From assembly GCA_051874695.1 (NCBI GenBank), contig JBJEGC010000022.1:5895-69894 (forward strand): a stretch of 64,000 nucleotides of DNA, written 5' to 3'. The notes below the pieces were generated by a model, which was not told the origin of the DNA, searched no databases, and was given only the letters and a program-made list of their open reading frames with translations. A program made the translations under genes and the position numbers. This DNA is from Candidatus Bruticola sp. (GTDB lineage Bacteria > Vulcanimicrobiota > Xenobia > Xenobiales > Xenobiaceae). Shown one piece after another: positions 25,865 through 47,652 of the stretch (the stretch's first letter is position 1; each line of letters begins with the position of its first letter).

Positions 25865-25873
25865 AGAAAAAAT

Positions 25874-28937: not shown

Positions 28938-29393
28938 GGTGGAAAAAAAGTCATTTTTATACGGTGGTGAGGAAACAGTATACTGCATATACTGAGTGTT
29001 TTATGCAGGAACTAATTAAGTACAGTACGAACTTTTAGCCCTCTTTAGTCTCCTTGGATCGCAAGATGTCGCAACAGAATCTCTCCTATGTTTCAACTTT
29101 TGCGATTTACCAAGGCAAAGAAGAGCAGCCGCAAGGTGCAGGTTATTGTTTACTGTTTTTTTTGTGGCTGAGGAGGGGGCGTCTCTAATTCGCGCAGGGC
29201 GCCGTCGACCGTCCTGCAGTGCAGCTCATCCTGCTGGCGGTTGTACCCGTGCAGGTGTGCGATCCGGGGAATGCTGAGAACCTGACTGCGCAATGCTGCA
29301 GCTTGGCTGTTTCCCCTGCGGAGCAGTCAATTTAGACAAGATTGAACTGAACGGATTAGTAGAAGATGGCTGACAAGTCGTTGAGAAGGTGGT

Positions 29394-32300
29394 GTGACTT
29401 ACGTGGCTGATACCATTGAAGGGTTGATGCAGGAGGCCCGAGCGTTCGCTGACAGCAGAAGCTGGGACCAAGCCATAGAGAGTTATTCCAGAGTAATAGA
29501 TCTGGATGCTGATAATGATGAGGCTTGCCGAAGCTTGGCTAATATCTACGCTTTGCGTGGAATGTTTAAGTCGGTAATAAGTACCTATCTGCGGTTGATG
29601 CACATCTATGTTGCGCGCAGTGACATGGATAATGCGATGGCTGTGGCTAACTATGTGCTCCTTTTAGAACCGGCGTCCATTGATGTCCGCTCTGAGCTCA
29701 TAAATATGTATCGCTATCGCGGGGATACAGCTGAGGTTGTGTCGCGCTCGCTCGATTTAGCTCGCCTTTATACCGAGTTAGACGAGGGGGATCGCTCTAT
29801 TGAACTTCTTCAGGCCGTCTTAAACGACGATCCGAATAATGCTGACATCTGCCGCGAACTGGCCGAAATGTATATTCAGTACGGTCAAGTAGAGCGCGGT
29901 GCCAGCCAGTATCATCAAGTCGCTGATTTGTATCAGGCGAACGGTCAGCTTGACAAAGCTTGCGATGCTCTAGAGCGAATTCTGGTTGTAAACAGCGGCG
30001 ATTCCGGCGCAGTATTCCATCTGGGAGAACTTTATTCCATGATGGAACGCTGGGAAGATGCCGAAAGGCAGTTCCGCAGCGCTCTTAAATTTGACTTTGA
30101 AAATCTCGATGTCATGTTCGCTTTGGGCAATGTTTGTCAGCGCAAAGGAGACTTGGACCAAGCCAGTTTAGCATATCGTAAGATAGTCATGATTGCTCCC
30201 GACTATGTCTTGGCTCAAGAACGCCTCGGCGAAATTTACCATATGCAGAACAACATAGAGCTGGCCATTAAGGCTTACCTTACGGCTGGTGGTCTCTATG
30301 TACGCAGTAACGACTCTGAACACGCCATAGCGCTTTATCAGCGCGTCATTTTCCTCGATCCCAATAATCCTGCTGCTACCCGTGAACTTACCAACTTGGG
30401 AGCTCCTGTCGTCGGTAACGATGGTGGTATTCAGCCTCTCGTTAAAAATAAGGCTGCAACCAAGTCTTCCCGATCTGAGTCACGCCGCGAGAAGAAAGAT
30501 GGAGAGCGTAAAACTCGCAGCGGTTTGCTTCCTAAGGGAGGCGGTGGTGTGCGCTCTGGTCTGGTTGCCAAAGGTGGCGGCTCCAAGCCTGGTTTAGGCG
30601 GAAAGCCCGTACTTGGTGGCGATGGTGAGGCTGAAGGTGCGCCGCGTCCGGGCTTAATGCGCGCAGGCTTGAAAGCTTCCGGAGGAGGTAAGCCCTCTTT
30701 AGGAGGCAAGCCTATGCTCGGTGGCAAGCGCGTTTTGGGTAGTCGTAAGAAGAAGGCTGAAGAGGCTAAAGAAGAGGCTCCTGTTGAGCATACTGCTATT
30801 AGCTTGGCTAAAGAGCCTGAAAACGATCAGAGTGCTGCTGTAGAAAATGTTGCCGCGAATGATGGTGAAGTTCAGGCCGCCGAAGTTGTAGCTGTAGAGT
30901 CCGGCGTAGATGAAGTAATGCCTACGCCAGAGCATGTTGAATCTTCAGAGTCACAGCCAGAAGTAGGAACCGTAGCTGAGGCCGTTCCAGAAGTAGGAGC
31001 AGCTATACCTGAGTCTGCGGGTGATATTCATTCCGAAATGACTCCGGAGCATAACCCGGAAGCTTTTTCCGCTTCCGAACATCAGGTTCCGCTCGAAGAT
31101 AACATTTACGCCGATGGAAACCAGCAGTATGTCGGGGAAGATCAACAATTCGGCGGTGATATGCAGCAATATGCTGGTGAAGCCCATCAGTTCGGCGGTG
31201 ATATGCAGCAGTATGCCGGTGAGGCTCAGCAGTTCGGCAATGATATGCAGCAATATGCCGGTGAAGTTCAGCAGTTCGGCAGTGATATGCAGCAGTATGC
31301 TGATGATTCTCAACAGTTCGGTGGTGACATGCAGCAGTATGTCGGCGCGGAGCAAGGCCAGGGTCATGAGTATTATCAGGAACCTTATGCTGCCCAAACT
31401 GGAGAATTCTACGGAGAGCATGCCGATGGAACCGGCCATTTTGAGCAGCCTACCGAATCTCACGAAGCTTATTACCAGCAGGAAGGAACTGCGGCTGAAT
31501 ACGGAGAGCAGCACCAGTACGAAGATGCTGCTTACGGTGGGGAAAACTACTCTGATAACGGTTACGGATTCGATATGCACCGTCCGCTTATCATGGTGCC
31601 CGAGGGCGAACTGATTGTACCTGCTCCTATACTTTATTTAGAGCGCACCGATCTGTACGAGGCTATTTGCCAGGCAATCACCGAGGTGCCGGATCCTTCG
31701 GTTATTCCGTGGGAACCTCTGCGTGTTATCGATGAAGCTGCTATAGAAGAGAAGCTGGCTCAACAGAGTGCTGAAGCTGCCAGAGCCGCGGCCGAGGCTG
31801 AGGAAGCTGCCAGAGCTGAGGCTGAGAAAGAACAGGCCGCTTCTAGTTCAGTGGAAGGTTTCGACTTCAGCGGTGGCGTTAACCTCAAAGGGGTTTCCGG
31901 GACTGGACTTCGCCGCAAATATTCTAAAGGTGAGTCTAAAGGCAGCTCGTCTTCAGGACGTTCCCGTCTTAGCGGCAATCAATCGCTTTCAGAGCGTGTG
32001 GCCCGCATGCGTGCGGAGAGCGCTGAACTTGAAGAAAGCGCTTCCGAGCATCGCGCCATTAGTGGTATCAACCGTCATCATCAAGATAAGTCTCAGAAGA
32101 AGGAGAAAGGCCGCTCGATTGTTGGCGGTATCTCCAGACCTATTAACCAAGTTATTGAAGAAGCCAACCAAGCCAACCAAGCCAATGGCACTGCTCCTCA
32201 AACTTATGCCGATCAAGCTCCTGAGATTCCTCGTCCCGAACTCACAGCCACGCGTTCTCGCAGCAGTTTGAGTGAACGTATTAAGAGGGCCAGACAATCG

Positions 32301-35300
32301 AAGGCTGCGGCTAAAGTTCAGGCTGAAGAGGTCAACGCGGAGCTTTCTGCTCAGTCTGTAGAACAGCCTGTTGCTGAATTCGACGGCAATGCTTATCAGG
32401 CTGAGTCTCAAGAAGCGGTCAACACTTCAGCGGCCTCAGCAGAATATGGTGCACCTACTGCTCCGGATGGGCAGTTAAGCGGGGAATATGAAGCTTATCA
32501 AGCTGCCGAGCAGGCGGCAAGTGACCCGTCTGCTTCCGAGCTTGGTCTTGCTCAGGTTGCTGTCGGCGCTGTAGCCATTGGAGCTGTCGCTGCTGCTAGT
32601 TCGGCTGTAGCCGACAATCTCGACGATCTCACTCAGGGCGAATATCCAATTGAATCTGGTGCTGAAGCAGAGCAGCTTGGCGGTCAGTACGGTGCCTATC
32701 CTGAAGCGGAACAGGCTAACGAAGGAGAGCAGCTTGGCGGTCAGTACGGTGCCTATCCCGAGGCTGGGCAGGCTGCCGAAGGAGAGCAGCTTGGCGGTCA
32801 GTACGGTGCCTATCCTGAGGCTGAACATGCTGCCGAAGCAGAGCAGCTTGGCGGTCAGTACGGTGCCTATCCCGAAGCTGAACATGCTGCCGAAGCAGAT
32901 ACTTCCGGCGTTGGTTTAGCCAAAGTTGCCGTAGGTGCTGTGGCCATAGGTGCTGTGGCTGCTGCCAGTTCTACCGTTGCTGACAATTTCAGTGGTGCTG
33001 AATTATATGCCGACACTGCGGCTGAGGAGCTGCTTGGAGAGCAGTATGGCGGGGGTGAAAACGTCGAAGCCGAGCCTGCTGCTGTCGTTGAAGAAGAACA
33101 GTTGGGCGCTCATTATAGCGCTTATCCCGAAGCTGAACCTGCTGCCGAAGCAGATACTTCCGGCGTTGGTTTAGCTAAAGTTGCTGTTGGTGCTGTGGCT
33201 ATAGGTGCTGTAGCTGCGGCTAGTTCTACTGTGGCAGACAATTTCAGTGATGCTGAGTTGTACACTGAGGCTGTGTCTGAGGAGCAGTTTAGCGGTCAGT
33301 ACGAGGCTGAGCCCGTTGAAGCTGAACCTGCAGCCGCTGAAGCTGAACAATTAGATGGAGATTACGGAAACTACGCAGATGCAGTTGAGCAGGCTGTTAA
33401 TTCTGGCGTAGGCTTAGCCAAAGTTGCCGTAGGTGCTGTGGCTATAGGTGCTGTGGCTGCTGCCAGTTCTGCTGTGGCTGATAATTTTGGCGATTTAGAG
33501 CAGTATGCATCCTATCCCGATGCAGATGGTGCTCCTGTGAGTGAACCTGTCGCTCAGATAGAAGATCGTCAATTGAATAAGGCAAATGCGAATCCGTCAA
33601 GAGACGTGGCAGAGGAAGTTCAGTCGGTGGAGACTCCTGTCGCCGTTGCCGATGAACTTGATACTTCTTCTAACGATGACAATGCTCAGGTGGTAGAGCT
33701 CGATGAAGCTGGAGCTTCAATGATTGAATTCGTTGAAGTTGACGACGATCGAACCGATGTTCCTGAGATAGTACTTAACGAGCCCGATGAAGTTGCTACT
33801 CCTACTAAGGTTAAAGTTCCCGTTCGCATAAAACGTAGAAAACGCCGCAGCGCTCCTGTTATCGAGCAAATCGAAGAAGTAGAAGAAATTGAGGCTGATC
33901 TCCCTCAAGGAGACGCTGGTTCGGATGCCTCTTCCGGCGTAGGGTTGGCTAAAGTTGCCGTCGGTGCCGTAGCTATAGGTGCTGTGGCTGCTGCCAGTTC
34001 AATGGTCGCGGATAACTTTGCTGCGAATGCTTCCGAACTTTACCAACAGGATGCTCAGTCTGAGTTTATTGAAGCTGAGAATATTCATGAAGAAAGTGCT
34101 GTAGCTGAAGCTGAACCTGAAGAGGTGCAGCCAGAGCCGGAACCTGAGCCGGTTGGCGATGAGCTTTGCTCGCTTTCTGTAGAATCTGAACTGCCTCCGG
34201 AATACTTAAAGGAAGCTCAGCGTCTGCGTGACAAGTTGGTGGGAGCCGATGTTACTACAGCTATAGGTGATTACCGTCGGGCTATTGAGAATTCTCCCGA
34301 AAACTTAGTGCTGCGTACCGATTTGGCTGATGTTCATTTGCGGTTCAGCTTAATGGATGACGCTATTAATCAGTATCGTCAAATTCTGCGCCGTAAACCC
34401 GACTCTGTGGCTTTGCGCCATCGTTTAGCTTGTGCTCACTTGTGGAACGAAGATTTCGATGAAGCTATAAAAGTGTATCTCGATTTGGCTGAACTGCATA
34501 CTCAAAACGAACAGTATGCTGATGTAATCGATGTTTTGCAAACTGTTCTCAGCCTCGATCCTCAACACTTTAAGGCTCGTCGTCTCCTTATTGATCGCTT
34601 TATCGCTCAGGGTAAAGTCGATTTAGCCACTCATCATCTGCGTCAGTTCGTGGATGCTGCTCTCTCTTTAGGTAGCGTAGATAATGCCATCTTCGCCCTT
34701 AAGCAACTTATAGAACTCTCTGATGATCCTGCTTTCGTAGAGCGTCTGGCTAAAGTTTACGAAGAACATGACAATGTCAGTGAAGCCATCTCCTACTATC
34801 AAATTCTTTCTGAACGCTACAGAAAGGAAGAAAAGTGGAGTGAAGCTTTGGCCGTCTGCAGCAAGTTGGTTGCTTTAGAGCCGGACAATTTTGACGAGCG
34901 CCGCCTGCTGATCAGTCTGTATCAGAATCTGGGCCGTTACGATAAGGCAATGGCTGAACAGTTCCATCTGGCCGGACTTTACAAAGAGCAGAACTCCATG
35001 GATGAGGCTGCTGAACTTTACCAGTCGATTGTAGACAAAGATCCTGGTCACTATGCCGCTCGTCGCTGCTTGGTTGACTGCTACCTGAGTAAGGGCAACC
35101 TGCAGGCTGCTATGATGCAAGTTGCTCCTTTAACCGAGCGTTACAGATCTGAGCGTCTCTTCGAGCAGGCTATTGAAATGTATAGAAGCTTGGTCGAGGC
35201 CGATCCGAGTTCTGTAGATTTGCGTGAAGAGTTGCTGGCCTTCTATACCATGGGAGAACAGCGCGAGAATATGCTCAGTGAGCTGCTCACTCTTAACGAA

Positions 35301-36065
35301 ATTCATGAAAACAAAGGCGAGTACAGAGATTCGGTTCGTTACTTGCGCCGCGCTATCGAGTTGGCGCCGGATCGTGCCGATCTGCACTGCCGTCTGGCTA
35401 AGCTTTATGATGAGCAGTTGCAAAGCATCAGTGGAGCTATGCAGGAATACAGAAAAGTATTCGAGCTCAATCCAGGTGATGCGGAAGCTATGAGCCGCTA
35501 CGCTCAGCTTTTGGTATCCCAGCGCAAGCCCAAAGAAGCTGCAGCCGTCCTGCTTAAATTGCAATCAATTAATAAAGAAGTTGGTAAGCAGGCCATCAAC
35601 ACCATCTGCAAGTCCTTCTTGGACAAGATCGCTCAAGACGGTGCTGATTTAGCTACCAGATATAGCTATGGAGAGCTGTGTTACTACCTCAACCGCATTA
35701 GCGATGCTATCGAGCAGTTCCAGAAGACTCATGCCGACAGAGACTTAGAGCTGCGCTCCCGCAACATGTTAGGTTTGTCCTTTATAAAGATGCCTCGTAT
35801 GCGTGAAATGGCTATCCGTCAGTTCCGCTTAGGTCTTGATACTAAAGGACATGCGGAGCAAGATTACCTCGAGCTGCGCTATAACTTGGCTATGTTGTTC
35901 TACCAGACCGACCGCCTCCAAGAGGCTCTGACCGAATTCAAGAGCATTTTGGCCTTTGACATTACTTACCGCGATGTCGAAGCCAGAGTTAAAGATTTGC
36001 AGGCTAAGATCGCTGCCGGCGGAGGCGCTTCTAAAGGCAGAGGCGTTCCTCCCCGCCGCAAATAG
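29394..36065 (+). CDS. giant (2223 aa) TPR protein with repetitive disordered centre and five repeated hydrophobic segments
   Basis: Single uninterrupted ORF. TPR-like units occupy the N-terminal ~330 aa and the C-terminal ~600 aa. The centre is Gly/Lys-rich, then Gln-rich 14-aa repeats, then acidic EQLGGQYGAYPEA repeats. It holds five copies of GVGLAKVAVGAVAIGAVAAASSxVADNF. Confidence 0.7.
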   Translation: MTYVADTIEGLMQEARAFADSRSWDQAIESYSRVIDLDADNDEACRSLANIYALRGMFKSVISTYLRLMHIYVARSDMDNAMAVANYVLLLEPASIDVRSELINMYRYRGDTAEVVSRSLDLARLYTELDEGDRSIELLQAVLNDDPNNADICRELAEMYIQYGQVERGASQYHQVADLYQANGQLDKACDALERILVVNSGDSGAVFHLGELYSMMERWEDAERQFRSALKFDFENLDVMFALGNVCQRKGDLDQASLAYRKIVMIAPDYVLAQERLGEIYHMQNNIELAIKAYLTAGGLYVRSNDSEHAIALYQRVIFLDPNNPAATRELTNLGAPVVGNDGGIQPLVKNKAATKSSRSESRREKKDGERKTRSGLLPKGGGGVRSGLVAKGGGSKPGLGGKPVLGGDGEAEGAPRPGLMRAGLKASGGGKPSLGGKPMLGGKRVLGSRKKKAEEAKEEAPVEHTAISLAKEPENDQSAAVENVAANDGEVQAAEVVAVESGVDEVMPTPEHVESSESQPEVGTVAEAVPEVGAAIPESAGDIHSEMTPEHNPEAFSASEHQVPLEDNIYADGNQQYVGEDQQFGGDMQQYAGEAHQFGGDMQQYAGEAQQFGNDMQQYAGEVQQFGSDMQQYADDSQQFGGDMQQYVGAEQGQGHEYYQEPYAAQTGEFYGEHADGTGHFEQPTESHEAYYQQEGTAAEYGEQHQYEDAAYGGENYSDNGYGFDMHRPLIMVPEGELIVPAPILYLERTDLYEAICQAITEVPDPSVIPWEPLRVIDEAAIEEKLAQQSAEAARAAAEAEEAARAEAEKEQAASSSVEGFDFSGGVNLKGVSGTGLRRKYSKGESKGSSSSGRSRLSGNQSLSERVARMRAESAELEESASEHRAISGINRHHQDKSQKKEKGRSIVGGISRPINQVIEEANQANQANGTAPQTYADQAPEIPRPELTATRSRSSLSERIKRARQSKAAAKVQAEEVNAELSAQSVEQPVAEFDGNAYQAESQEAVNTSAASAEYGAPTAPDGQLSGEYEAYQAAEQAASDPSASELGLAQVAVGAVAIGAVAAASSAVADNLDDLTQGEYPIESGAEAEQLGGQYGAYPEAEQANEGEQLGGQYGAYPEAGQAAEGEQLGGQYGAYPEAEHAAEAEQLGGQYGAYPEAEHAAEADTSGVGLAKVAVGAVAIGAVAAASSTVADNFSGAELYADTAAEELLGEQYGGGENVEAEPAAVVEEEQLGAHYSAYPEAEPAAEADTSGVGLAKVAVGAVAIGAVAAASSTVADNFSDAELYTEAVSEEQFSGQYEAEPVEAEPAAAEAEQLDGDYGNYADAVEQAVNSGVGLAKVAVGAVAIGAVAAASSAVADNFGDLEQYASYPDADGAPVSEPVAQIEDRQLNKANANPSRDVAEEVQSVETPVAVADELDTSSNDDNAQVVELDEAGASMIEFVEVDDDRTDVPEIVLNEPDEVATPTKVKVPVRIKRRKRRSAPVIEQIEEVEEIEADLPQGDAGSDASSGVGLAKVAVGAVAIGAVAAASSMVADNFAANASELYQQDAQSEFIEAENIHEESAVAEAEPEEVQPEPEPEPVGDELCSLSVESELPPEYLKEAQRLRDKLVGADVTTAIGDYRRAIENSPENLVLRTDLADVHLRFSLMDDAINQYRQILRRKPDSVALRHRLACAHLWNEDFDEAIKVYLDLAELHTQNEQYADVIDVLQTVLSLDPQHFKARRLLIDRFIAQGKVDLATHHLRQFVDAALSLGSVDNAIFALKQLIELSDDPAFVERLAKVYEEHDNVSEAISYYQILSERYRKEEKWSEALAVCSKLVALEPDNFDERRLLISLYQNLGRYDKAMAEQFHLAGLYKEQNSMDEAAELYQSIVDKDPGHYAARRCLVDCYLSKGNLQAAMMQVAPLTERYRSERLFEQAIEMYRSLVEADPSSVDLREELLAFYTMGEQRENMLSELLTLNEIHENKGEYRDSVRYLRRAIELAPDRADLHCRLAKLYDEQLQSISGAMQEYRKVFELNPGDAEAMSRYAQLLVSQRKPKEAAAVLLKLQSINKEVGKQAINTICKSFLDKIAQDGADLATRYSYGELCYYLNRISDAIEQFQKTHADRDLELRSRNMLGLSFIKMPRMREMAIRQFRLGLDTKGHAEQDYLELRYNLAMLFYQTDRLQEALTEFKSILAFDITYRDVEARVKDLQAKIAAGGGASKGRGVPPRRK
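31130..31350 (+). repeat. in-frame tandem repeat, ~7 x 42 bp (DMQQYAGEAQQFGG)
   Basis: Near-identical 42-bp units are visible in the sequence. Confidence 0.8.
32541..34020 (+). repeat. five dispersed copies of an ~80-bp unit encoding the hydrophobic segment GVGLAKVAVGAVAIGAVAAASS(A/T/M)VADNF
   Basis: Copies start near 32541, 32907, 33163, 33406 and 33936. The peptide is conserved, while the DNA differs at many synonymous positions. Confidence 0.8.
32665..32885 (+). repeat. in-frame tandem repeat, 4 x 60 bp (EQLGGQYGAYPEAEQAxEG)
   Basis: Almost identical 60-bp DNA units. Confidence 0.8.
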
Positions 36066-36103
36066 TGGAACTCTTAAGCGCCTTTATTGGAATCGGAGAA
36101 AAA

Positions 36104-39100: not shown

Positions 39101-40519
39101 ACTTGCGTGCGTGAAGTCAAGCTGCTGCAGCCTTTGAATTTGGAGCTCAGCCAGTGTTTGGGCGCTATGTTCCTGAAGGCCGGTTACTTAGAAGAAGGAC
39201 AGCAACTGCTGGAAGAGCTCATTCCTGCTTACAAAGGGCGCTCCGATCATGAAAACGTGGTTAAAGTGTTCCGAACCCTTTCTGAAGCCTTCGATGCTAA
39301 TCAGCAATGGGAAGCTGCTTTGGAGTATTTGGAGCGTGTTGGTGACGAACAGGTTGAGGCTGATGAGTGGAGGGAAGCTCAATCCAACTATTTGAAGGCC
39401 TTGGAAGAGTACTTGCGCCGTGGACGTCGAGAGTACACGGATACTCTCTTTGTTAAGTTGATTGACGGTTTCTTCCGTCATAAGAACGTCAATGAGGGTG
39501 TAGAGCTGCTGAAGGAAGTTGAGGAGCGTTTCGTTAGGGCGGGTCGAACCGATTTAGCTCTGATCGTAAAAGATCGCCTGGCTTCTATCATGGAGCGGCT
39601 TGAAGAATGGAGCGAAGCTCTCGATGTGGTCATTCTGATTGCTGATACCAACTTGGAGCTGGGGGATGTCGAGCAGGGTATTGCTTACTATCGTCGCGGC
39701 GTCGATTTGGCTGTCAATCATGATATGACCGAGCGCGGCGTTGAGCTGGCTTTCAAAATGGCCGACTTACTCATTAACTATCGGGGCATTGAGGCAGCTC
39801 GTCCGATTTTCGATGAGGTCAGGGTTTACGATAACCAGTCTCCGGAAACCATTGAGCGCATTGCCGATATTATGTTTGAGCGTGGTTACCGCGGTGAAGC
39901 TTGCCCTATCTACAAGGAAGTTTTGGAGTTAGAACCTGGACGCGCTCAGTCTCTTTCCCGCGTGTCTATTATTTACGCCTTAGAAGGTAAACTGGAAGAA
40001 GCGGCCGGCTTGGCTCGTCAGATATTCGCGAAGGGACTCGTTGGCAAAATCACTGAGGAATACGGCAAAGCTCTTTGCTGCAAGCCAAACGATGCCGTTT
40101 ACCACATTAAAATGGGCGAATTCTTTAGGCAGCTTGGTTTCTTGGAAGAAGCTATCGATGAGTTCCATAAAGCTATTACCGATCCGGCTAAGGTTTTGGT
40201 CGCAGTTAATGGTTTAGCTATGGCCTTCCAAGAAAAGGGCTACCGTGACTTAGCTATTAAACAGCTGCAGAAAACCATGGAACAGCCTGGTTTCAGCGAT
40301 GAAGAACTCCTCGATCTGCGCTATAATTTAGCTATTATTCTCCAGGCTGAAGGCCGCTACGATGACGCCATTCAGGCTTTCCAAGAGTGCTACGCCGTAG
40401 ATATTAAGTACCGTGATGTATCTGAGCGCTTGAGTGAACTCTTTGAAAAGGTTGGAGACGGAGTGCCAGGTGAGGGCAGTGGTTACGATGATTACTACTA
40501 TTTCGAAGGAGAGGAGTAG
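36104..40519 (+). CDS. giant all-TPR protein (ORF-track length 1484 aa; ~1471 aa from ATG 36104)
   Basis: TPR-like 34-aa units run throughout, with no TM segment. The ATG at 36104 has GGAG 5 nt upstream. The ORF-track start (GTG 36065) overlaps the upstream stop, so the two genes are translationally coupled or co-transcribed. Confidence 0.7.
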   Translation: MTDRSNMESLIQQADDLVGAGNWEEAREIYKQVVSQDPNNVEVREHVLASAKRALAFQVIIGQDMALAELFAANGEAEKAIDSYKDILNLEKMAQSQGISGAQLSEIQNLVAQVKPEIFAKTGTIYLNEGRYMEAIKWLRPSLDLDPSRWDTHMAMGRALMMDNKNKEAISEFQEVVRLASTEAASAYELLGEVFLRIGRSPQNTIVWFRNAGELFVQRNEFTDAIRAYERILQFEPRNKDILVRLSDIYTAEGYTEKACAAYFTLAQIFEEEGFSDKVMSYLEKTIEFNPADDEARTKLIAIYGEALENDPSNVSLRVRLIENLLKKGMFSEAAENQLELAKIYIDKGSIDDAIATLRKLIDIEPDNIEARRLLGDQYRRKDMGTEALSEYQEVVRLYQENGFADEAIEFQHQLVEMFPETSDLRYQVALSLRSQGNHEGAVRELDRLVRSNPDDMIAMNYLAEEYAALGHWDKAIGAYHEILNHDPARYDVRKRLIKYYVEQSFYEEAMAEIRLLPDDDFEKRAFAYKIIERCLEENRTDEAEAYIHGLEPDDERLVSFHKELLKRYLDLGELVQADRVVTLIPRSDKERNKLITRLMELYLGASNMESAVALIDRLPDDDSLRLSFQRRLINSYQEMGRFEDAATEMAKLPPGDESYHDFSMRQISGLMQSGRLNDAMNCIKELSEDDPARNSFMGQLIEAYLQDGNIDKAAQEVAGLPPKTEVCSRYMRRIIQAYLNNNRFEEAERDIMLLDSNDPEKLSFLRILLQKYEINGLVDNLRELVVKLPDGMPEKQQYLDGIVHSFLTAGNMAKARQEIYSLAETVSEKGNHLEAERLYSDLLAYHPVDVEIRMRLCQEVAAQGKLERASEGLLVLAGRFRKEGNATSAVDIYTRLLEIDPGNLNARYRLGEIWAQHGQTAQALEHFSFLASEYLRQNLNEVAQKVLHRILDLDSKDIVHRRQLITLLARNMRLEEAIENYRVLLGIHLDRGELEEALTCVREVKLLQPLNLELSQCLGAMFLKAGYLEEGQQLLEELIPAYKGRSDHENVVKVFRTLSEAFDANQQWEAALEYLERVGDEQVEADEWREAQSNYLKALEEYLRRGRREYTDTLFVKLIDGFFRHKNVNEGVELLKEVEERFVRAGRTDLALIVKDRLASIMERLEEWSEALDVVILIADTNLELGDVEQGIAYYRRGVDLAVNHDMTERGVELAFKMADLLINYRGIEAARPIFDEVRVYDNQSPETIERIADIMFERGYRGEACPIYKEVLELEPGRAQSLSRVSIIYALEGKLEEAAGLARQIFAKGLVGKITEEYGKALCCKPNDAVYHIKMGEFFRQLGFLEEAIDEFHKAITDPAKVLVAVNGLAMAFQEKGYRDLAIKQLQKTMEQPGFSDEELLDLRYNLAIILQAEGRYDDAIQAFQECYAVDIKYRDVSERLSELFEKVGDGVPGEGSGYDDYYYFEGEE

Positions 40520-40532
40520 GGCTGAGTTTTAC

Positions 40533-41984
40533 ATGAATTGCTCTGTTACTCCATATCGGAAGGTTTTGCGCAGAAGCGTAATTGCTGCCGGTGCAGCGAT
40601 GGCTCTCTTCTGCCTTTCCTGCAGAGCATGGGCCCAGGAAGTCGGCGGCGAAGCTGCTGCTGGTGAGGGCGGGCTCGTGCAAACTTTAGCTTCTCATATG
40701 CAGGTGCTACAGATAGTCTGCGGAGTGTCTGCAGCCATTTTTGTAGTCTGTCTGTGCTGGGAAGTTTGGGTCTCCATTCAGCTGCATCAGAATGGAGGTG
40801 TGCTTCCTGAACCTGAGCCGCAGGAAGAAGAGCCTGAACCTGAAAAGCCTTCCCGCTTTGAGGCTCCTGTGCTGGACGAAACAGAAGATCCGTTTAAGGC
40901 GCTGTTAAATAAGGCCAGCTCGTCTGAGGATGCTAATAAAAATGAGGGAGGAAGTAAGAAGAGTTCTGGGTCTTCCTCTGCTTCTGCACCTTCGTCTTCC
41001 GATTCTGCTGAATCGGGGAGCGGTTTCTCCGGCAGTAAGAAATTTGAACCTTACAAAAATGTCGAACCTATTAAGAGTGGCGATCGTATAACTCGCCGTG
41101 AGCAGGATAATCCGTCTTTTGATGGCGATGCGACTATCGCTGTTGGAGCGGGGTTAGTTCCTCCTAAGGTCGGTGGTTTTGGCGTAGGTACTGGCGGAGC
41201 TGTTGGATTTGGCACTCCTCCTAAACCACCCGCACAGCCTGCTGCTGTCGGATTTGGAGCTCCTTCCAAGCAACATAGTATAGGTTTTGCTCCGCCGAAG
41301 TCTCCCGCCTCCGGTTCGACTGGCTTTGCTCCGCCGAAGCCTCCCGTTTCTGGTCAGGCCGGTTTTGCTCCGCCGAAGTCTCCCGTTTCTGGTCCGGTAG
41401 GCTTTGCTCCGCCGAAGTCTCCCGTTTCCGGTCCGGCCGGTTTTGCTCCGCCGAAGTCTCCCGTTTCTGGTCCGGTAGGTTTTGCTCCGCCGAAGTCTCC
41501 TGTTTCCGGCCCTGTAGGCTTTGCTCCGCCGAAGCCTCCCGTTTCCGGCCCGGCCGGTTTTGCTCCGCCGAAGCCTCCCGTTTCCGGCCCGGCCGGTTTT
41601 GCTCCGCCGAAGTCTCCTGTTTCCGGCCCAGCCGGTTTTGCTCCGCCGAAGTCTCCTGTTTCTGGCCCAGCCGGTTTTGCTCCGCCGAAGTCTCCTGTTT
41701 CTGGCCCAGCCGGTTTTGCTCCGCCTAAACACGGAGGTTTAGGCGTTGGTCCGGGAGCATCCTCAAGTCGTTCTGCTGCGGTTCCTACCAATGTGGGAGC
41801 GGCTCGTCCGACAGTTCCTTTGGGGGCAGCCAGGAGCGCTGCCGGTTCTGCTGACGCCGCTAAAACAGGAGATTCTTGGAAAGCTTTAGCCAGCGGTATG
41901 GAGAATAAAGGTATGGCTCACGGAGCGCCCCGAAGCCAATCTTTAGATATTAAGCGCAGTGGTTTCCCCCCTGCTAACCCTTAA
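40533..41984 (+). CDS. signal-peptide/TM protein with 12 tandem 13-aa proline-rich repeats (GFAPPKSPVSGPA)
   Basis: The ATG at 40533 gives MNCSVTPYRKVLRRSVIAAGAAMALFCLSCRAWA/QE (signal peptide). A second hydrophobic helix follows (VLQIVCGVSAAIFVVCLCWEVWV). Then come an acidic/Ser-rich region, the repeat array, and a Gly/Ala-rich C-terminus. Confidence 0.6.
   Translation: MNCSVTPYRKVLRRSVIAAGAAMALFCLSCRAWAQEVGGEAAAGEGGLVQTLASHMQVLQIVCGVSAAIFVVCLCWEVWVSIQLHQNGGVLPEPEPQEEEPEPEKPSRFEAPVLDETEDPFKALLNKASSSEDANKNEGGSKKSSGSSSASAPSSSDSAESGSGFSGSKKFEPYKNVEPIKSGDRITRREQDNPSFDGDATIAVGAGLVPPKVGGFGVGTGGAVGFGTPPKPPAQPAAVGFGAPSKQHSIGFAPPKSPASGSTGFAPPKPPVSGQAGFAPPKSPVSGPVGFAPPKSPVSGPAGFAPPKSPVSGPVGFAPPKSPVSGPVGFAPPKPPVSGPAGFAPPKPPVSGPAGFAPPKSPVSGPAGFAPPKSPVSGPAGFAPPKSPVSGPAGFAPPKHGGLGVGPGASSSRSAAVPTNVGAARPTVPLGAARSAAGSADAAKTGDSWKALASGMENKGMAHGAPRSQSLDIKRSGFPPANP
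41283..41735 (+). repeat. tandem 39-bp repeat x12 encoding GFAPPK(S/P)PVSGP(A/V)
   Basis: Directly visible in the sequence. Units differ at a few synonymous and A/V sites. Confidence 0.85.
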
Positions 41985-42013
41985 CAGTGTGAAGTTCGAC
42001 GGAGGATGTCCAG

Positions 42014-42907
42014 TTGTATATCCCTAAAGGCAACATATTAATCGAAGACGTAGAGTTGTCGTATGACAATATGCGCGAAATGCAGGCTAACTTATCCAAT
42101 GACGGCTTCACCGGCTATGTCAAGTTAGACTTAGAAAATTCTTCTGCTTATGTTTTTTATGATAATGGCACTGTGGTCCAGGTTTTAGAGGTTGATAACG
42201 CAACTAGTCTGGTTAGTTTGCAATTGGAACAGCGCCTTCTTAATCGTATTAAGCTCGACAACATAAAATGCTCTAGCTACGTGACTTCTAAGCGTATTGT
42301 CAACGTACTGACAGGTATTTTTGCCTTCCAACCTCTTTATCTTGATTATGAAGCCAAAAAGCGTGATATGCCTCGCATTTTGGAAAAACTCCAAGATGGA
42401 GGTTACAGTGGTCTAATGAAGCTGTCTACTCGTGAGGGTACCTATTATTTGGCAATCGATAATGGCGATATTGTGCGCGATCGTTTTTGCTACAACTATG
42501 GGGAAGTTCTCAGTGGTACCGAGGCTATCGATCGCATACTCAATTTTGAGTTCGATAGCGAAGGAGCCACTATGAGCATCTTTGCTGAGCGCGTTGAAGA
42601 GATCGACATTAAGCGCAGTGCTAAAGAAGAGGAACTTGAGAAGATCAAGACTCTGATTGTCAAATCTGATGGCGGTTTCCTGCGGGCTAACGATGTTGTC
42701 AAAGTTGATAACTATATTGTGCGCGAGTGGAATATCGCCGATATTAAGTCTACTTTCTCTGTCGAGATTGAAACTCCGGACGGCTCTCTCTATGAATACA
42801 GATGTCAGGCCGGTTCTAAGTTCGGCGATCGTGCCGGTTTAACGCCTGCCATGATGAAGAAGATGGGATTAGCTGAAGGAGATAATATCTCTATTCGTCC
42901 TCTGTAA
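42014..42907 (+). CDS. protein with two DUF4388-like domains
   Basis: Two segments fit the DUF4388 pattern G.L....L..L......G.L.L......YF.DG.IV. They are GNILIEDVEL...DGFTGYVKLDLENSSAYVFYDNGTVV and ILEKLQDGGYSGLMKLSTREGTYYLAIDNGDIV. The TTG start has GGAGG 8 nt upstream. The domain call relies on recalled family patterns. Confidence 0.45.
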   Translation: MYIPKGNILIEDVELSYDNMREMQANLSNDGFTGYVKLDLENSSAYVFYDNGTVVQVLEVDNATSLVSLQLEQRLLNRIKLDNIKCSSYVTSKRIVNVLTGIFAFQPLYLDYEAKKRDMPRILEKLQDGGYSGLMKLSTREGTYYLAIDNGDIVRDRFCYNYGEVLSGTEAIDRILNFEFDSEGATMSIFAERVEEIDIKRSAKEEELEKIKTLIVKSDGGFLRANDVVKVDNYIVREWNIADIKSTFSVEIETPDGSLYEYRCQAGSKFGDRAGLTPAMMKKMGLAEGDNISIRPL

Positions 42908-43009
42908 ACTTAATGATGCCGGTGCCTCTCTCTATGAAATTTTTTCTGATTAGGGAGGCCCCCGGCTTCTGGCTCCATGAAATAATAGGTGTTTGGAAGG
43001 AGAGAGAGC

Positions 43010-43369
43010 ATGTCTCAACTGACATCTCTGCTGCAAAGTTTTCAGCGTTTAGATGGGGTTCTGGGCGCTTGTATTCTGAGCAAAGATTGTGAAATATTGG
43101 CGGAAAATTTAAACGATTCGGTCAAAAATGATGTCGCAGCCGTTTCTTTTAAGGAGTTCTTGCCTAAAGTAGAAGCTCTCGTGTCCGGATTGGGCGTTGC
43201 CGGGGTTGACAGGCATCATCTGATTCTCGATGATAAACAGCTTATGATAGAAGTTTTAGTCGGCGGGGCTATGCTGGTTGTTTTTACCAGCAGCGACAAC
43301 AGCAATCAAGGGCGCGTGCGCTTAGAGATTCGCAAGAGCAAAAAGAATATAGAAGCAGCTTTGGCTTAG
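43010..43369 (+). CDS. Roadblock/LC7 (MglB-like) domain protein
   Basis: About 119 aa with the roadblock pattern LDGVLGACILSKDCEILAENL...AAVSF...LGVAGVDRHHLILDDKQLMIEVLVGGAMLVVFTSSDNSNQGRVRLEIRK. AGGAG lies 7 nt upstream. Confidence 0.6.
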   Translation: MSQLTSLLQSFQRLDGVLGACILSKDCEILAENLNDSVKNDVAAVSFKEFLPKVEALVSGLGVAGVDRHHLILDDKQLMIEVLVGGAMLVVFTSSDNSNQGRVRLEIRKSKKNIEAALA

Positions 43370-43460
43370 CTGGTTTTTGGGGTCGAAATTCGGTTTATAA
43401 GCTGCAGATTGAATTTTGTCTGTGATAATTAAATGAGGAATAGTGAGGCCGGATACTAAA

Positions 43461-45101
43461 ATGGAAGTAATGACTACTCTGGAAAGGCAAATTCAGAGAA
43501 ATCGCCGTTTACTGGAAAGTGATCCTAATAATGTCGATTTGATGCTTACTTACGCGCTGGATTGCCTGCGTCGCGATTTGCGTTTTGAGGCTTTAGTTAC
43601 TTTCCAGAAGGCAATTCAACTGAAAGATACGGCTGATGCTCATCTGGCTTTGGCGCAAATTTTCTATTTGCAGTCTCTTTATCGCGAATCTTATGAAGAG
43701 CTGCGCCGTGTTTTTAAACTCGATTCCATAAATATAGGCGCTCATGTTTTACTCCATCTGTTGAAGGATAAAGAGAGCATTCCCGACGACTTAGTGCCTC
43801 GTTTAGCTTTTGTGCCATCCCGTTCTGCTTTGGGAGATGAAATGATCAACGCGAGCAATGAGCGCGATCTATATCGTCGTGAAGTTCAGGAATATGAGGC
43901 TATTGCGGCTAGCGGTGTCAACGATCCCGAGCCTATTGTTCTTTATTGTTTGGGGGAAGCTAAAAAGCGCGTTGAGCGCATAAATGTCAACTTGAAAATA
44001 ATGAGCCGCTGGGAGCTTTTGGCTATTGATATGCCAGGCTTCCTGCCTGAAGAGAAGAGCGACTTAGTTGATAAATCTGAGGCTGCTTCCTCTGCTGAGT
44101 CTGAGGAGGTGGAGTCCGTCCAACCTCAAGAATCCTCTGTTGAAATAGAGGCTGTTGCGGCTGTGGAAACTGAGGCTGAAATTGATGCTGAAGCTGAAGA
44201 AAGCCACACTAAGAAAACTAAGAAGTCTAAGCGCCGTCGCGCCAAGGAACGCCATACTTCAGCCGTTGCTGAGACTGAGCAAGTTGCTGCTGTGGAAACC
44301 ACAGAGCCTGCGGCTGAGGTGGAAACTGAGGCTGCTGTAGCTGAGGAGACAACTGAAGCGGAAATTTCTAAAACTGCAGAAACTCTTGATACCACTAGTA
44401 TTGAAGCAGAGCAGCCTGTTGCAGTCAAGATTGAACAACCTGTTGCTGAAGATGAGAGCACCGTTTCCGAAGTTGCCGATATTGTCGAGGAGGTTCCTGC
44501 TGTTGCAGTTACTCTCGATAGTGAGTCTCCCAAGAATGAAGTGGCAGAAGTTGTTTCATCCGAGATTGAGGTGCCCGCTGCTGATCTGTCCGTTGTAAAA
44601 GACGAACAAACTGAGGATAAGGCGACTGCAACTGAGCCTGAGTCTGTATCCGATGATAGTACAACAGAGGTAATAGAAGTTTCTGAATCTGAAGTCGCTG
44701 TCGCCGAAGAGCCTGCAGCGGTGGAGGAAGTTCCTGAACTGCCTTCTGAAGAGGAGTTGGCCAAAGAGGCGTCCTTTAATGAATTTTTGGCTTCCATGTG
44801 CAAAATTAAAGGCAGTGTGAGAGCTATGGTTTTGACCGCTCGCGGACGTTTGGCTGCTATAGAGGGAGAGTTTGAACAGCCTGAAGAGACTGCTGCCAGA
44901 GTCGCTGGTTTCCTGAAAGGTGTCTGCAGTGACGGCAAGATGCGTCTAATTACTTTTGTCAGTGAGAGCAAGAACAGTTCAGTCATTCTGCAGCAGATTA
45001 ATGACACTTATTATATGTTGGTAGACGGACGGTCAGTCACCTTGGGCGTTTTGCGCCAACGTGCTGAGCGATGCAAAACTGAATTGGCTGGTTTGTGTTG
45101 A
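43461..45101 (+). CDS. TPR - acidic low-complexity linker - Roadblock/LC7 domain fusion protein
   Basis: N-terminal TPR-like repeats and a ~230-aa Glu/Ala/Val/Thr-rich linker. The C-terminal ~110 aa fit the roadblock pattern (GSVRAMVLTARGRLAAIEGEFEQPEETAARVAGFLKG...SSVILQQINDTYYMLV). Confidence 0.55.
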   Translation: MEVMTTLERQIQRNRRLLESDPNNVDLMLTYALDCLRRDLRFEALVTFQKAIQLKDTADAHLALAQIFYLQSLYRESYEELRRVFKLDSINIGAHVLLHLLKDKESIPDDLVPRLAFVPSRSALGDEMINASNERDLYRREVQEYEAIAASGVNDPEPIVLYCLGEAKKRVERINVNLKIMSRWELLAIDMPGFLPEEKSDLVDKSEAASSAESEEVESVQPQESSVEIEAVAAVETEAEIDAEAEESHTKKTKKSKRRRAKERHTSAVAETEQVAAVETTEPAAEVETEAAVAEETTEAEISKTAETLDTTSIEAEQPVAVKIEQPVAEDESTVSEVADIVEEVPAVAVTLDSESPKNEVAEVVSSEIEVPAADLSVVKDEQTEDKATATEPESVSDDSTTEVIEVSESEVAVAEEPAAVEEVPELPSEEELAKEASFNEFLASMCKIKGSVRAMVLTARGRLAAIEGEFEQPEETAARVAGFLKGVCSDGKMRLITFVSESKNSSVILQQINDTYYMLVDGRSVTLGVLRQRAERCKTELAGLC

Positions 45102-47577
45102 TTTGAAAGCAGAGCGCGTTATTTTTAACATAAGCACTTACGGTGCTTTGGCTGTTGTTGGTGGTATTTTGGCCTTTCCTGCCGTTACAGCGGTGTCACA
45201 GGCCTACAGTAACGGCGCGCTCAGCTCTGCCCCCGTTTCTTCTCTCAGTCTGTTCGACTTTTTGAGACATGTTGTCCTAGATTCCGATTCAGGGGCCATG
45301 ATGGGAATGGGCAGAGGGGCTCTGGTTATGCTCATTGGAGTGGCCTCTCTGCTTTGGTTGTCTGTACCTCGCCTGCGCACTGAAAAGGGTGTTTTTGTTG
45401 GCATTGGTTTAAGTCTACTGCTTTTGTGGGGGGCCCTTTCTGCTTACTTCAGCGTCTGCGCTTATGAGAGCATGCTCGATTTATGTTCCTACGCTTCTTC
45501 CGTCAGTTTCTTTTTGTTGATAGCTGCCCTTAGCAGAGAGTTCTCTCTAAGGAGATGCCTTGGGGGAAAAAGTGGCGGTGAGGTTCAGCAGTCTGCAGAG
45601 CGCACTGCCAAAGCGGCTGTTTCGTATTTGCAGCTGATGACTTTTGCTGCAATAGCAGGGGCATGGCTGCTTTTTTTATGCAATCCTGTGGGCGATGGCT
45701 TGTCCGGCAGCTTTTACAATAAGAATTTACTCGCCGTATTTCTGCTTTTAACTCTTCCTGTAGGAATAGTTCGTCTATTTGAGCACTGCCGGGAGGCAGA
45801 AATCCATTATATAAGTGGTCTTAGTGCCTCTTTAGTTGCGTCAATTTTTTGTCAGATTTCTTTTATCACTGCAAATATAAGTAGTCTGTTTTTAACTTAC
45901 AGCCGTTCTTGCTTAATATTAGCTTGTTTTGCTCTGTCTGCTTCTTTTTGGCTAATTGTTTATCTTTCTAAAAATAGTCGTGAAGCTTGGCGTGGGGCAG
46001 CTTGGGCCGCCTTAAGTTGTCTGCTGTTGATCTTTTCAGTTTTTCTCTTTTCACGCTCGTTTTATGTCGCTTTAGTTTGCCTGGCCGCATCAGCAGTGGT
46101 TGTTTACAGGTTTTTCTTGAGTGGTGTCAAGGGCGGTAAGTTGATGGCGGCTCTTTTATGTGCTTCGGCTGTTTTATTTTCGTTGGTTGTCCTTTTTGTG
46201 CAGAGCGATTCGATGGCCGCTAAAGGAAGTCGCCATTTACAAGATTTGGGGGCCAAAGGCGATACCTCTTTAACATCCAGATGTCAATTCTATGAAGCTT
46301 CTCTAAAAATTACTGGGGAACATCCTCTGCTGGGAGTAGGGGCCGGTAATTTTGAGCGCTATTATCCTCTGTTTCAAACTGATTTTCGCTGGTTTTCTAA
46401 GCGTTCTCATTCTTTGAGCTGCGATTTGTTGGCTGAAGGAGGGGTGCTCTCGTTTGTACTTTTTTATGGACTGCTTGCTTTTGTTTATGTGCAGACCGTC
46501 AAAAAGGTCAGATCTGATGCGCCGCTTGTGGCTCAGCTTCGTTTGGCCTGTGCTTTAGGAGCTGCCCTTCTACTTATTCATGCCCAGTTAGATATAGACA
46601 GCCATGTTATGGTACTGCCTCTTTGGGGAGCTGCTTTGCTTGGTTTGGCTTGGGGAATTCCCAGCCGGGATGAGTGTTTATCTAATACTCTGGATGAGTG
46701 TGGTTTGTGGAGCAGTGGCAAACGTTACTTTATTAGTTATAACTGCATTCCCGCCGCGGCAGTTATCTTGGTTTTTTGCTTTTCAGGACAGGCCTGGGGA
46801 GGGCAATATTACAGTACTATAGGTAAAATTTATCTTGATATGGATGAACCGGAGAAGGCCAGGCAGTGTTATAACTGGGCTTCTGAATACGATCCCAATA
46901 TCGGTGAGTACTGGCGTCAAATGGCCGCTCTGGCCTTAAACCAGTGTAAGAGCGAAGATAAAGCTAAGTCGGTAGCCGTTAGCATACGTTTTTGTGCTAT
47001 GCAGGCTGCGCGTCTCGATCCCCATAGAGCTTCTGTACAGAGTATACTGGGACAGGGATTGGAGCTGTCTGACGATTTGCAGGGAGCCGAACAATGTTAT
47101 AAGCGCGCTTTAGAATTGGATAGTAAAAATTCTCCTGATATTTATAGCAATTTGGCTAGAGTATATTCGAAGCAAGGACGCCTTAAAGAGGCTAAGTCTG
47201 TACTCGATCGGGCTTGGTCGGCTTTTCCGGAAGAGTTGCTGCATCAGAATTATTTCTTTGACTTTCGTTACAAGCTGATAAATAATGAAATGGCTTCTTG
47301 TTGTTTAATGCGTTTTGAAATTGCTGCAACTGAAGGCAACATGGCAGAAGCAGAACTCAGCTTGTCCAGGGCGTGCAGGTTTGATAGCTCTCTTAAGAAT
47401 AGTTTGAAAGATGCAGCTGTCTATTTTCTAGAGCAGAGCAAGATTTCTGCTGCAGCGGGACAAATTAGCAAGGCAGAAAAGGAGAAAGCCAAAGCTGTAT
47501 GCTTCCTAAAGGTGGCTGCTTCTGCTATGCCGCAGGACGACAATATAAAAGGTTTGCTCCGGCTAACGGAAAGGTAA
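45061..47577 (+). CDS. O-antigen ligase-like (Wzy_C) polytopic membrane protein with C-terminal TPR domain
   Basis: More than 10 TM helices. The Wzy_C signature is present (EHPLLGVGAGNFERYY...RSHSLSCDLLAEGGVLS). The C-terminal ~280 aa are TPR-like. The start is uncertain because it overlaps the upstream gene. Confidence 0.65.
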   Translation: MLSDAKLNWLVCVDLKAERVIFNISTYGALAVVGGILAFPAVTAVSQAYSNGALSSAPVSSLSLFDFLRHVVLDSDSGAMMGMGRGALVMLIGVASLLWLSVPRLRTEKGVFVGIGLSLLLLWGALSAYFSVCAYESMLDLCSYASSVSFFLLIAALSREFSLRRCLGGKSGGEVQQSAERTAKAAVSYLQLMTFAAIAGAWLLFLCNPVGDGLSGSFYNKNLLAVFLLLTLPVGIVRLFEHCREAEIHYISGLSASLVASIFCQISFITANISSLFLTYSRSCLILACFALSASFWLIVYLSKNSREAWRGAAWAALSCLLLIFSVFLFSRSFYVALVCLAASAVVVYRFFLSGVKGGKLMAALLCASAVLFSLVVLFVQSDSMAAKGSRHLQDLGAKGDTSLTSRCQFYEASLKITGEHPLLGVGAGNFERYYPLFQTDFRWFSKRSHSLSCDLLAEGGVLSFVLFYGLLAFVYVQTVKKVRSDAPLVAQLRLACALGAALLLIHAQLDIDSHVMVLPLWGAALLGLAWGIPSRDECLSNTLDECGLWSSGKRYFISYNCIPAAAVILVFCFSGQAWGGQYYSTIGKIYLDMDEPEKARQCYNWASEYDPNIGEYWRQMAALALNQCKSEDKAKSVAVSIRFCAMQAARLDPHRASVQSILGQGLELSDDLQGAEQCYKRALELDSKNSPDIYSNLARVYSKQGRLKEAKSVLDRAWSAFPEELLHQNYFFDFRYKLINNEMASCCLMRFEIAATEGNMAEAELSLSRACRFDSSLKNSLKDAAVYFLEQSKISAAAGQISKAEKEKAKAVCFLKVAASAMPQDDNIKGLLRLTER

Positions 47578-47608
47578 TCGTTACTGTTTTTATTTTTGCA
47601 TTAAATAA

Positions 47609-47652
47609 AACTCCCCGCCGACGGATGGCTTATCTGACGGCGGGGAGTTTTT
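47609..47652. terminator. bidirectional rho-independent terminator
   Basis: AACTCCCCGCCG ... CGGCGGGGAGTT hairpin with an A-tract upstream and a T-tract downstream, between convergent genes. Confidence 0.7.

Follow-up and report, generated by a model that had tools for sequence, protein, structure and literature searches.

A conserved seven-gene block of giant TPR, PATAN, and roadblock proteins behind the type IVa pilus locus of Candidatus Bruticola is a candidate pilus accessory module

In a 64-kb stretch of DNA from Candidatus Bruticola sp. (class Xenobia, Vulcanimicrobiota/Eremiobacterota, formerly also WPS-2), hereafter called the window, a type IVa pilus locus is followed by a block of seven large genes, which we numbered g1 to g7 in their order along the plus strand. 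The locus raises two questions, namely, whether these genes form a unit and, if so, whether this unit serves the pilus. An original prediction, made from the DNA sequence of the window, had taken the block for an undescribed pilus-associated or polarity module that recalls the machinery of Myxococcus. As detailed below, the seven genes are one conserved, co-directional, and terminator-bounded unit. Judging from sequence, we consider it somewhat probable that this unit is an accessory module of the type IVa pilus that is specific to the lineage and has, in general terms, a regulatory scaffold or signaling function.

The block covers positions 29394 to 47577 of the window and consists of seven big open reading frames (ORFs) that all lie on the plus strand with a spacing of -41 to ~100 nucleotides (nt). 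It is bounded by an intrinsic terminator after pilQ (28901-28935, plus strand), which is a stem-loop of -24.8 kcal/mol with a z score of -7.1 that precedes a T-run, and by a bidirectional terminator between the end of g7 and a convergent gene for a C39-like peptidase (47603-47653; -32.1 and -29.5 kcal/mol, z score of about -7.5 on each strand, flanked by an A-run and a T-run). The ORF map and the hairpin energies thus agree with the original description of seven plus-strand genes, separated by short gaps or overlapping, between these two terminators. From the extent given there (29165-47652), the end coincides with the end of the terminator, and the start has to be corrected, since position 29165 lies within the spacer upstream of g1 and out of frame with this gene. 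No Walker A motif was found in the ORFs of the block of at least 100 amino acids (aa), in line with the claim that the block encodes no P-loop protein, and the PADLOC models of defense systems gave only weak, generic TPR-type matches to it (at most 22 bits).

To place the block in a wider context, we inspected its relatives in stretches (L001 to L022) that reach at most 10 kb to either side of an anchor gene and that derive mostly from metagenome assemblies. Full-length homologues of g4 amounted to 24 among 5.8 billion proteins and to ~36 clusters among 1.84 billion representatives, and a scan of genome collections retrieved at least six loci. Among the matches listed, nearly all informative labels were Eremiobacterota, Vulcanimicrobiota, Xenobia, UBP9, or Bruticola, and two metagenome-assembled genomes (MAGs) bore the odd labels Firmicutes and Burkholderiales. 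The locus L015 (CAZQPM010000041.1), which is labelled "uncultured Burkholderiales bacterium," contains a Xenobia-type module with the same gene order and a g4 that is 55% identical, and it is probably mis-binned or mislabelled. The order g1-g2-g3-g4-g5-[receiver-kinase]-g6-g7 was observed in L004 to L015, L021, and L022, that is, in every locus long enough, with identities down to 25-42%. Furthermore, g1 directly follows pilQ in the window and in four of the four other loci of which the upstream side is visible (L008, L009, L021, and L022), and L021, from a marine metagenome, shows the entire run pilB-pilT-pilC-pilin-pilD-pilM-pilQ-g1. Scattered genes that are never linked to pil genes had been named beforehand as an outcome that would speak against the module; this is not what the relatives show, because they keep both the order of g1 to g7 and the adjacency to pilQ.

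The bracketed position between g5 and g6 harbors a CheY-like receiver and a GAF(-PAS) histidine kinase in L004/5, L006/7, L009, L014, L015, L021, and L022. This pair is absent from the Bruticola clade (the window and L010 to L013) and from L008, and tblastn searches of the window with the copies from L004 and L006 gave no match. The sequences indicate that the receiver and kinase were lost in the gut-associated Bruticola clade. An alternative explanation for the block as a whole would be that it is not a functional unit at all and that unrelated neighbors have been held together by chance or low recombination in a few related MAGs. Nearly all sequences are indeed metagenome-derived, several of them from close gut Xenobia (L010 to L013), and a terminator lies between pilQ and the block. 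However, the order persists at 25-42% identity in gut, marine, and other sources, the genes overlap or are separated by short gaps, and the receiver-kinase pair always occurs in the same internal slot. We therefore regard chance adjacency as very improbable.

The locus preceding the block (16701-28867, plus strand) was described as a complete type IV pilus locus, and the Pfam matches confirm this for PilB (16701-18470), PilT (18717-19808), PilC (20034-21263), the pilin (21578-22120, for which NCBIfam was also supportive), PilD (22233-23189), PilM (23365-24486), PilN (24545-25183), PilO (25193-25864), and the PilQ secretin (26843-28867). A single gene is unassigned, namely, that at the PilP position between PilO and PilQ (25874-26638; 254 aa), which matches no family; L008, L009, and L022 likewise have a family-less gene between PilO and PilQ. 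In addition, L008 has a sigma-70 family gene (1-22) immediately before the pilin gene, and in L021 such a gene (3873-4640) separates pilC from the pilin gene; the pilus locus of the window has none.

What kind of unit this is can be read from its parts. The structure model of g4 (42014-42907; 297 aa) has a predicted local distance difference test score (pLDDT) of 91.2 and comprises three domains, namely, two PATAN/DUF4388-like domains (aa 7-99 and 106-209) and a double-psi beta-barrel (aa 212-296). The second domain matches the Pfam family DUF4388 (PF14332) with 27.5 bits at a cut-off of 25, and it is the only one of the two that does so. Since both domains align with each other (hhalign, 86%; E value, 5e-6), the first is homologous to the second, and the "tandem" of the original prediction holds; in remote homologues, the DUF4388 match falls on either the first or the second domain. 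The C-terminal barrel had been missed, and its fold matches solved double-psi beta-barrel domains of the Cdc48/VAT/NSF N-domain type, to which it can be assigned. There is no Response_reg match and no receiver in g4, which sets it apart from PatA-type proteins. In L009, g4 and g5 are separated by a small additional gene (21660-21986) that encodes a stand-alone paralogue of the g4 barrel (tblastn E value, 1e-11), and a 112-aa gene without Pfam match is found at the same position in L022 (21821-22159).

Two further proteins, g5 and g6, contain roadblock domains. The single-domain protein g5 (42989-43369; 126 aa, with a start that is probably at 43010, as called in public assemblies) reaches only 16.7 bits with Pfam Robl_LC7 in the window copy, which is below the cut-off of 23. 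Its orthologues carry Robl_LC7, and their profile (A2) matches the solved structures 7yh1_D (2e-7), 7f8m_A (2.7e-7), and CvnB5 (1.9e-5) over ~105 residues, followed by solved MglB at 3e-3. The protein g6 (43443-45101, alternative start at 43461; 552 aa) was divided, based on the alignments A3 and A4, into an N-terminal TPR/helical domain of ~190 aa, a variable acidic linker, and a C-terminal roadblock/LC7 domain of ~115 aa. The best solved match of the profile of this last domain (A4) is CvnB5 (1.5e-7), and MglB is matched at 7e-5; the L006 orthologue shows a weak Robl_LC7 match in Pfam. The roadblock families of g5 and g6 are also related to each other (hhalign, 98.3%; E value, 1.8e-14). Both g5 and the C-terminal domain of g6 thus belong to the Roadblock/LC7 superfamily.

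Roadblock proteins of the MglB type are considered coupled when an MglA-family GTPase is encoded within a few genes (PMC4316618), and by this measure those of the present locus are not coupled. A scan for the G1-G3-G4 motif pattern identified no MglA-like GTPase in the 64-kb window, where Era (11659-12570) was the only protein found, nor in the 15 Eremiobacterota loci fetched (L001 to L015, L021, and L022) within flanks of at most 10 kb around the anchor. The same scan detected a GTPase in all three of the loci that served as the positive control (L018 to L020), and the original statement that the roadblock proteins lack a linked MglA partner is therefore true at the level of the locus.

These control loci also provide information on the ancestry of the module. 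Beyond the full-length homologues, ~300 more distant matches to the g4 profile, with E values down to 1e-21, resemble g4 in the tandem-PATAN unit only (aa 1-190), and their C-terminal part is a helical domain in place of the beta-barrel; those with names originate from Nitrospirae, Anaerolineales, and KSB1. In L018 to L020, a tandem-PATAN gene is followed by a small homologue of g5 (hhalign, 93.5%), and the surrounding genes encode REC-PATAN and PATAN-DUF8082 proteins, a HAMP protein, an MglA-like small GTPase, and an MglB-like roadblock that is closest to the roadblock of g6 (hhalign, 95.5%). Such a PATAN-MglA-MglB neighborhood has already been noted in comparative work (PMC4316618). The presence of distant relatives of g4 and g5 next to an MglB-like roadblock and an MglA-like GTPase suggests that the g4-g5 pair derives from polarity-type switch modules. 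On this sequence evidence, the module looks like a derivative of PATAN-MglA-MglB switch modules in which the GTPase was lost or became unlinked, to which giant TPR scaffolds, a membrane anchor, and a Wzy_C-TPR enzyme seem to have been added, and which seems to have become fixed behind the pilus operon.

Whether the GTPase was lost or became unlinked separates two readings. According to one, the block is an ordinary MglA/MglB-type module of which the GTPase is encoded elsewhere; g5 and g6 would act as a GTPase-activating protein or as a scaffold for a guanine nucleotide exchange factor, and this MglA/SofG-like GTPase would bring the TPR proteins to the pilus pole, in the way that SgmX is recruited by MglA. 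The g6 roadblock is indeed closest to the MglB type, as seen from its matches to solved MglB and to the roadblock of the control loci, the distant relatives of g4 and g5 adjoin MglA-like GTPases, and uncoupled members are known for both families, since the 2014 survey listed 59 uncoupled MglA homologues and 328 MglB homologues, of a total of 749, that were uncoupled from a GTPase, none of the latter characterized (PMC4316618). Against it, the scan that succeeded in all three control loci detected no MglA-like gene in either the window or the 15 Eremiobacterota loci, the missing linkage is consistent over deeply diverged lineages, and most lineages have a receiver and a kinase instead between their roadblock genes. 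We consider this reading rather unlikely. According to the other reading, pilus polarity in Eremiobacterota would be set without any Ras-like GTPase, by a roadblock heterodimer and a PATAN-barrel adaptor that are tethered to TPR scaffolds and an anchor, driven by a two-component system, and act on PilB, PilT, or PilC; we hold this to be more doubtful still.

The scaffolds in question are g1 (29394-36065; 2223 aa, with the true start probably at 29403 or 29427) and g2 (36065-40519; 1484 aa), in which TPR families give very strong Pfam matches. g1 is composed of a TPR segment (aa ~1-345), an acidic low-complexity core of ~1250 aa, and a second TPR block of ~630 aa (aa ~1590-2223); the core holds repeats that are species-specific and a short basic patch of Gly, Lys, and Leu. 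The orthologues P0049, P0052, P0054, and P0055, which are 30-74% identical, have the same three-part plan with cores that are unrelated in sequence. g2 consists entirely of TPR and is a paralogue of the C-terminal block of g1, as evidenced by tblastn cross-matches and by the common ending LELRYNLA...D[IV]xYRDV. Hydropathy analysis revealed neither a signal peptide nor an N-terminal hydrophobic segment in either protein. Within the acidic disordered core of g1 (aa 1051-1542; 32544-34019), five near-identical hydrophobic GLAKVAVGAVAIGAVAAASS repeats of 26 residues each, GLAKVAVGAVAIGAVAAASSxVADNF, were noted. They were considered as conserved transmembrane helices, and this was rejected, since none of the orthologues inspected has them, not even the one that is 74% identical, and they are thus not conserved membrane segments; they could be membrane-binding or self-associating segments. 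The g1 gene also contains in-frame coding tandem repeats of 42 nt (31122-31345) and 57 nt (32660-32899).

The TPR proteins g1 and g2 could not be assigned to any of the specific families compared. With the SgmX model (NF052243; cut-off, 1800 bits), g2 scored 128.3 and g1 scored 33 bits, which corresponds to generic TPR similarity. Across the two proteins, the PilW model gave 123 and 70 bits at a cut-off of 154, the Tgl model gave 67-68 bits at a cut-off of 225, and the GltE model gave 71 and 45 bits at a cut-off of 225, so that neither protein is an SgmX, a PilF/PilW/Tgl pilotin, or a GltE; the PgaA, BcsC, and PrsT models produced weak TPR matches far below their cut-offs. The resemblance to the giant Glt-type TPR proteins of Myxococcus that the original prediction had noted is not supported by these comparisons. 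Remote giant TPR homologues of g1 in a Sumerlaeota MAG and a JGI contig were discarded as relatives of the module, since their gene contexts are unrelated and the similarity is thus one of generic TPR.

A candidate membrane anchor is g3 (40533-41984), whose ATG is right after the stop codon of g2; the ORF is open from 40434, which corresponds to 516 aa. Hydropathy and the alignment of orthologues indicate a signal-like segment followed by one transmembrane helix with a conserved WEV, and acidic short motifs of the DPFKALL type are conserved across the alignment. In this species, the Pro-rich tail is formed by 11.4 copies of a 39-nt unit (41283-41725) that encodes the 13 residues GFAPPKSPVSGPA. 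Several terminator-like sites within g3 are artefacts caused by this coding repeat. No family in Pfam or NCBIfam was matched, and g3 is, as predicted from its sequence, a membrane-anchored disordered protein. Its description as a Pro-rich repeat protein was correct; its likening to RomR was not, since a receiver domain is absent, the N terminus is a signal-like segment with a transmembrane helix, and no family is matched.

The last gene, g7 (45061-47577; 838 aa), encodes a polytopic protein with ~13-15 hydrophobic segments. It is a member of the Wzy_C family (PF04932; 64.8 bits at a cut-off of 31.7, aa 320-469) with C-terminal TPR families; comparison with solved structures yielded TPR matches only, and neither a specific family model, NCBIfam included, nor a close sequence match was found. 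L008 contains a second Wzy_C-TPR gene (188-3683) between the pilin gene and pilD, which is the position of tfpO, encoding the pilin glycosyltransferase, in Pseudomonas. The possibility that g7 is a close paralogue of this gene was rejected by sequence comparison, according to which the two are only distantly related. Wzy_C is shared with PglL, PilO/TfpO, and WsfB, and two of these protein O-oligosaccharyltransferases, PglL and WsfB, are described as combining Wzy_C with a TPR motif at the C terminus (PMC2943079). g7 differs from them by its location at the far end of a signaling module and not beside the pilin gene, and the match is one of architecture only. Taken together, profile searches and the repeat analysis bear out the domain content that had been predicted for the block, namely, giant TPR proteins, a Pro-rich repeat protein, tandem DUF4388, two Roadblock/LC7 proteins, and a Wzy_C-TPR protein. 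A lack of profile support for the roadblock or DUF4388 assignments, the other outcome that had been named as speaking against the module, was not observed.

As g7 is a solid member of the Wzy_C family, we also considered that the block is an envelope or polysaccharide module, in which Wzy_C and TPR scaffolds serve O-antigen, S-layer, or exopolysaccharide production and the pilus genes are mere neighbors. In L006, the module is followed by genes for a radical-SAM protein, a GT4 glycosyltransferase, and a hydrolase, and TPR proteins are common in polysaccharide export, as the weak PgaA, BcsC, and PrsT matches recall. However, all scores with these polysaccharide-type TPR models are far below the cut-offs, and g1, g2, g4, g5, and g6 have neither a signal peptide nor a transmembrane segment and are thus cytoplasmic. 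Moreover, PATAN, roadblock, receiver, and kinase are parts of signaling and not of envelope synthesis, and the place after pilQ is conserved phylum-wide. An envelope role, which we judge to be improbable, and mere adjacency both fit the evidence poorly.

Our preferred reading, a pilus accessory module, can be extended to a tentative mechanism, the individual steps of which are less certain than the general function. A cytoplasmic scaffold and signaling system would set where and when pili are made. g1 and g2, which are placed in the cytoplasm because they lack signal peptides, would together build a large TPR platform that underlies the pilus base on its cytoplasmic side, and g3 would tether this platform to the inner membrane, with its DPFKALL-type motifs and Pro-rich repeats as plausible TPR ligands. 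g4 may be the output adaptor, whose PATAN domains would contact the motor proteins PilB and PilC, as in cyanobacterial PatA-type regulators, and whose Cdc48-N-like barrel would bind a further partner. g5 and the roadblock domain of g6 may dimerize into a switch platform that is fed by the receiver/kinase pair, where present, and that would either act on an MglA-type GTPase encoded elsewhere or need no GTPase at all. Finally, g7 would be a PglL/WsfB-like O-oligosaccharyltransferase that glycosylates the pilin or another surface protein or that ligates a motility-associated glycan.

A number of points weigh against this reading. (i) The proposed role in pilus polarity or regulation is inferred from synteny and domain precedents. 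(ii) TPR, roadblock, and PATAN are generic interaction modules. (iii) Contact between PATAN and the motor is known only from cyanobacteria, in REC-fused proteins that are distant from g4 in sequence. (iv) The absence of the GTPase applies to the 64-kb window and to the flanks of up to 10 kb in the relatives. (v) g7 is not close to the pilin-adjacent Wzy_C-TPR gene of L008, and its predicted TPR topology is uncertain. (vi) A strong terminator and a spacer of 526 nt stand between pilQ and g1, so that the module is probably transcribed separately. The part of this spacer beyond the terminator (28936-29393; ~460 nt) contains one promoter-like match (28956-28984), and its plus strand lacks ORFs of 80 aa or more. 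An Rfam scan of 28000-48500 gave no match in the spacer and a single chance-level match, which is inside g2. The spacer measures ~350 nt in L008, ~1080 nt in L009, ~1220 nt in L022, and ~220 nt in L021, and it could be a regulated leader.

How does the module compare to known systems? The polarity genes of Myxococcus are dispersed, whereas those of the module are clustered with the pilus operon. The polarity pathway of Myxococcus xanthus (MglA, MglB, MglC, RomR/RomX, SgmX, FrzS, and SopA) resembles the module in that roadblocks and a very large TPR protein act on a type IVa pilus and, in most relatives of the module, in the response-regulator input. It differs in that the module has no linked MglA, a g3 without the receiver that is present in RomR, g1 and g2 proteins that are far below the SgmX cut-off, and a barrel in g4. 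In Myxococcus, the TPR protein SgmX is essential for the polar localization of PilB, and the same study listed two PATAN proteins as candidates (PMC11580455); by analogy, this precedent fits the proposed scaffold role of g1 and g2. The PATAN-MglA-MglB clusters of L018 to L020 share with the module the tandem-PATAN protein, the g5-like roadblock, and the second, MglB-like roadblock. Unlike the module, they contain an MglA-like GTPase, HAMP or dCache-HAMP, REC-PATAN, and PATAN-DUF8082 proteins, and they are without giant TPR proteins, Wzy_C, or adjacent pilus genes.

The PATAN/DUF4388 domain of g4 is also found in the cyanobacterial PatA-type regulators, such as PixE, in which PATAN binds PilB1 and the N terminus of PilC and sets the direction of pilus-driven movement (bioRxiv 10.1101/2021.06.11.447907). 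The PatA-type proteins possess one PATAN domain fused to a receiver and function downstream of chemotaxis-like systems, whereas g4 has two PATAN-like domains, an extra barrel, and no receiver; where a receiver is present in the module, it is a separate gene. A further point of comparison is FimV/HubP of Proteobacteria, which are very large, acidic, low-complexity proteins with TPR elements that organize polar pilus or flagellar machinery and that have a LysM domain in the periplasm and are themselves anchored in the membrane. Both LysM and anchor are missing from g1 and g2, and no sequence relationship was detected; the membrane anchor may be supplied in trans by g3.

The conservons of Streptomyces (CvnA to CvnD) are similar in that a roadblock is coupled to a histidine kinase, and CvnB5 is the best solved match of the g6 roadblock, but conservons contain CvnC (DUF742) and the GTPase CvnD and are without receiver, TPR, PATAN, or a link to pili (PMC4316618). 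Neither CvnC nor CvnD occurs in the gene lists of the relatives' loci, nor does a GTPase motif, and the block is thus not a conservon. In archaea, roadblock genes are found repeatedly in type IV pilus loci (PMC4858521). A literature search retrieved no paper that describes the module, which is consistent with the claim that its combination of parts matches no named system. Every domain is from a known family, and the action of PATAN, roadblock, and TPR proteins on type IV pili is a known theme. Unusual are the consistently missing linked GTPase, the PATAN-PATAN-barrel architecture, and the fixed coupling to the pilus operon across the phylum.

The host had been read as a Firmicute-like diderm, which has to be revised, since it is a Candidatus Bruticola of the Xenobia and its g1 shows 100% identity with a protein from a Bruticola MAG at NCBI. 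The window encodes an 867-aa protein with an N-terminal SLH domain (1347-3950, minus strand), which is the architecture of OmpM-type outer-membrane tethers, here in Vulcanimicrobiota, and this SLH/OmpM-like protein probably prompted the earlier reading. Upstream of the pilus region, an ORF with a weak LIM-type zinc-finger match (6840-7859) is followed by one for a Ser/Thr protein kinase (7928-8836). Downstream, the convergent gene for the C39-like peptidase (47713-48471, minus strand) is kept behind the module in Xenobia loci (69-99% identity). Beside it is an HxsC-like radical SAM gene (48622-49668, minus strand), otherwise seen only in the closest relative, L010, where there is also a 62% identical copy of a 479-aa protein encoded upstream of lon (49807-51246) that has no match in Pfam or NCBIfam.

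Only one member of the phylum has been cultured, a diderm whose phototactic motility depends on type IV pili (PMC9758169), and the module might be open to genetic tests if that strain carries it. The control of pilus polarity is understood mainly in Myxococcus, Pseudomonas, and cyanobacteria, and the module would be a third or fourth design. It would belong to a barely studied phylum of diderm Terrabacteria, in which PATAN and roadblock parts appear to be reused without a linked GTPase and giant disordered TPR scaffolds to have been added. MglB-like roadblocks that are uncoupled from a GTPase are found here in a fixed and interpretable context beside their likely target machine. If the doubtful reading without any GTPase were true, it would give "orphan" MglB-like roadblocks their first function and amount to a polarity switch without a GTPase. 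By losing the kinase and receiver, the gut clade may illustrate how bacteria shed sensory input when they become associated with a host.

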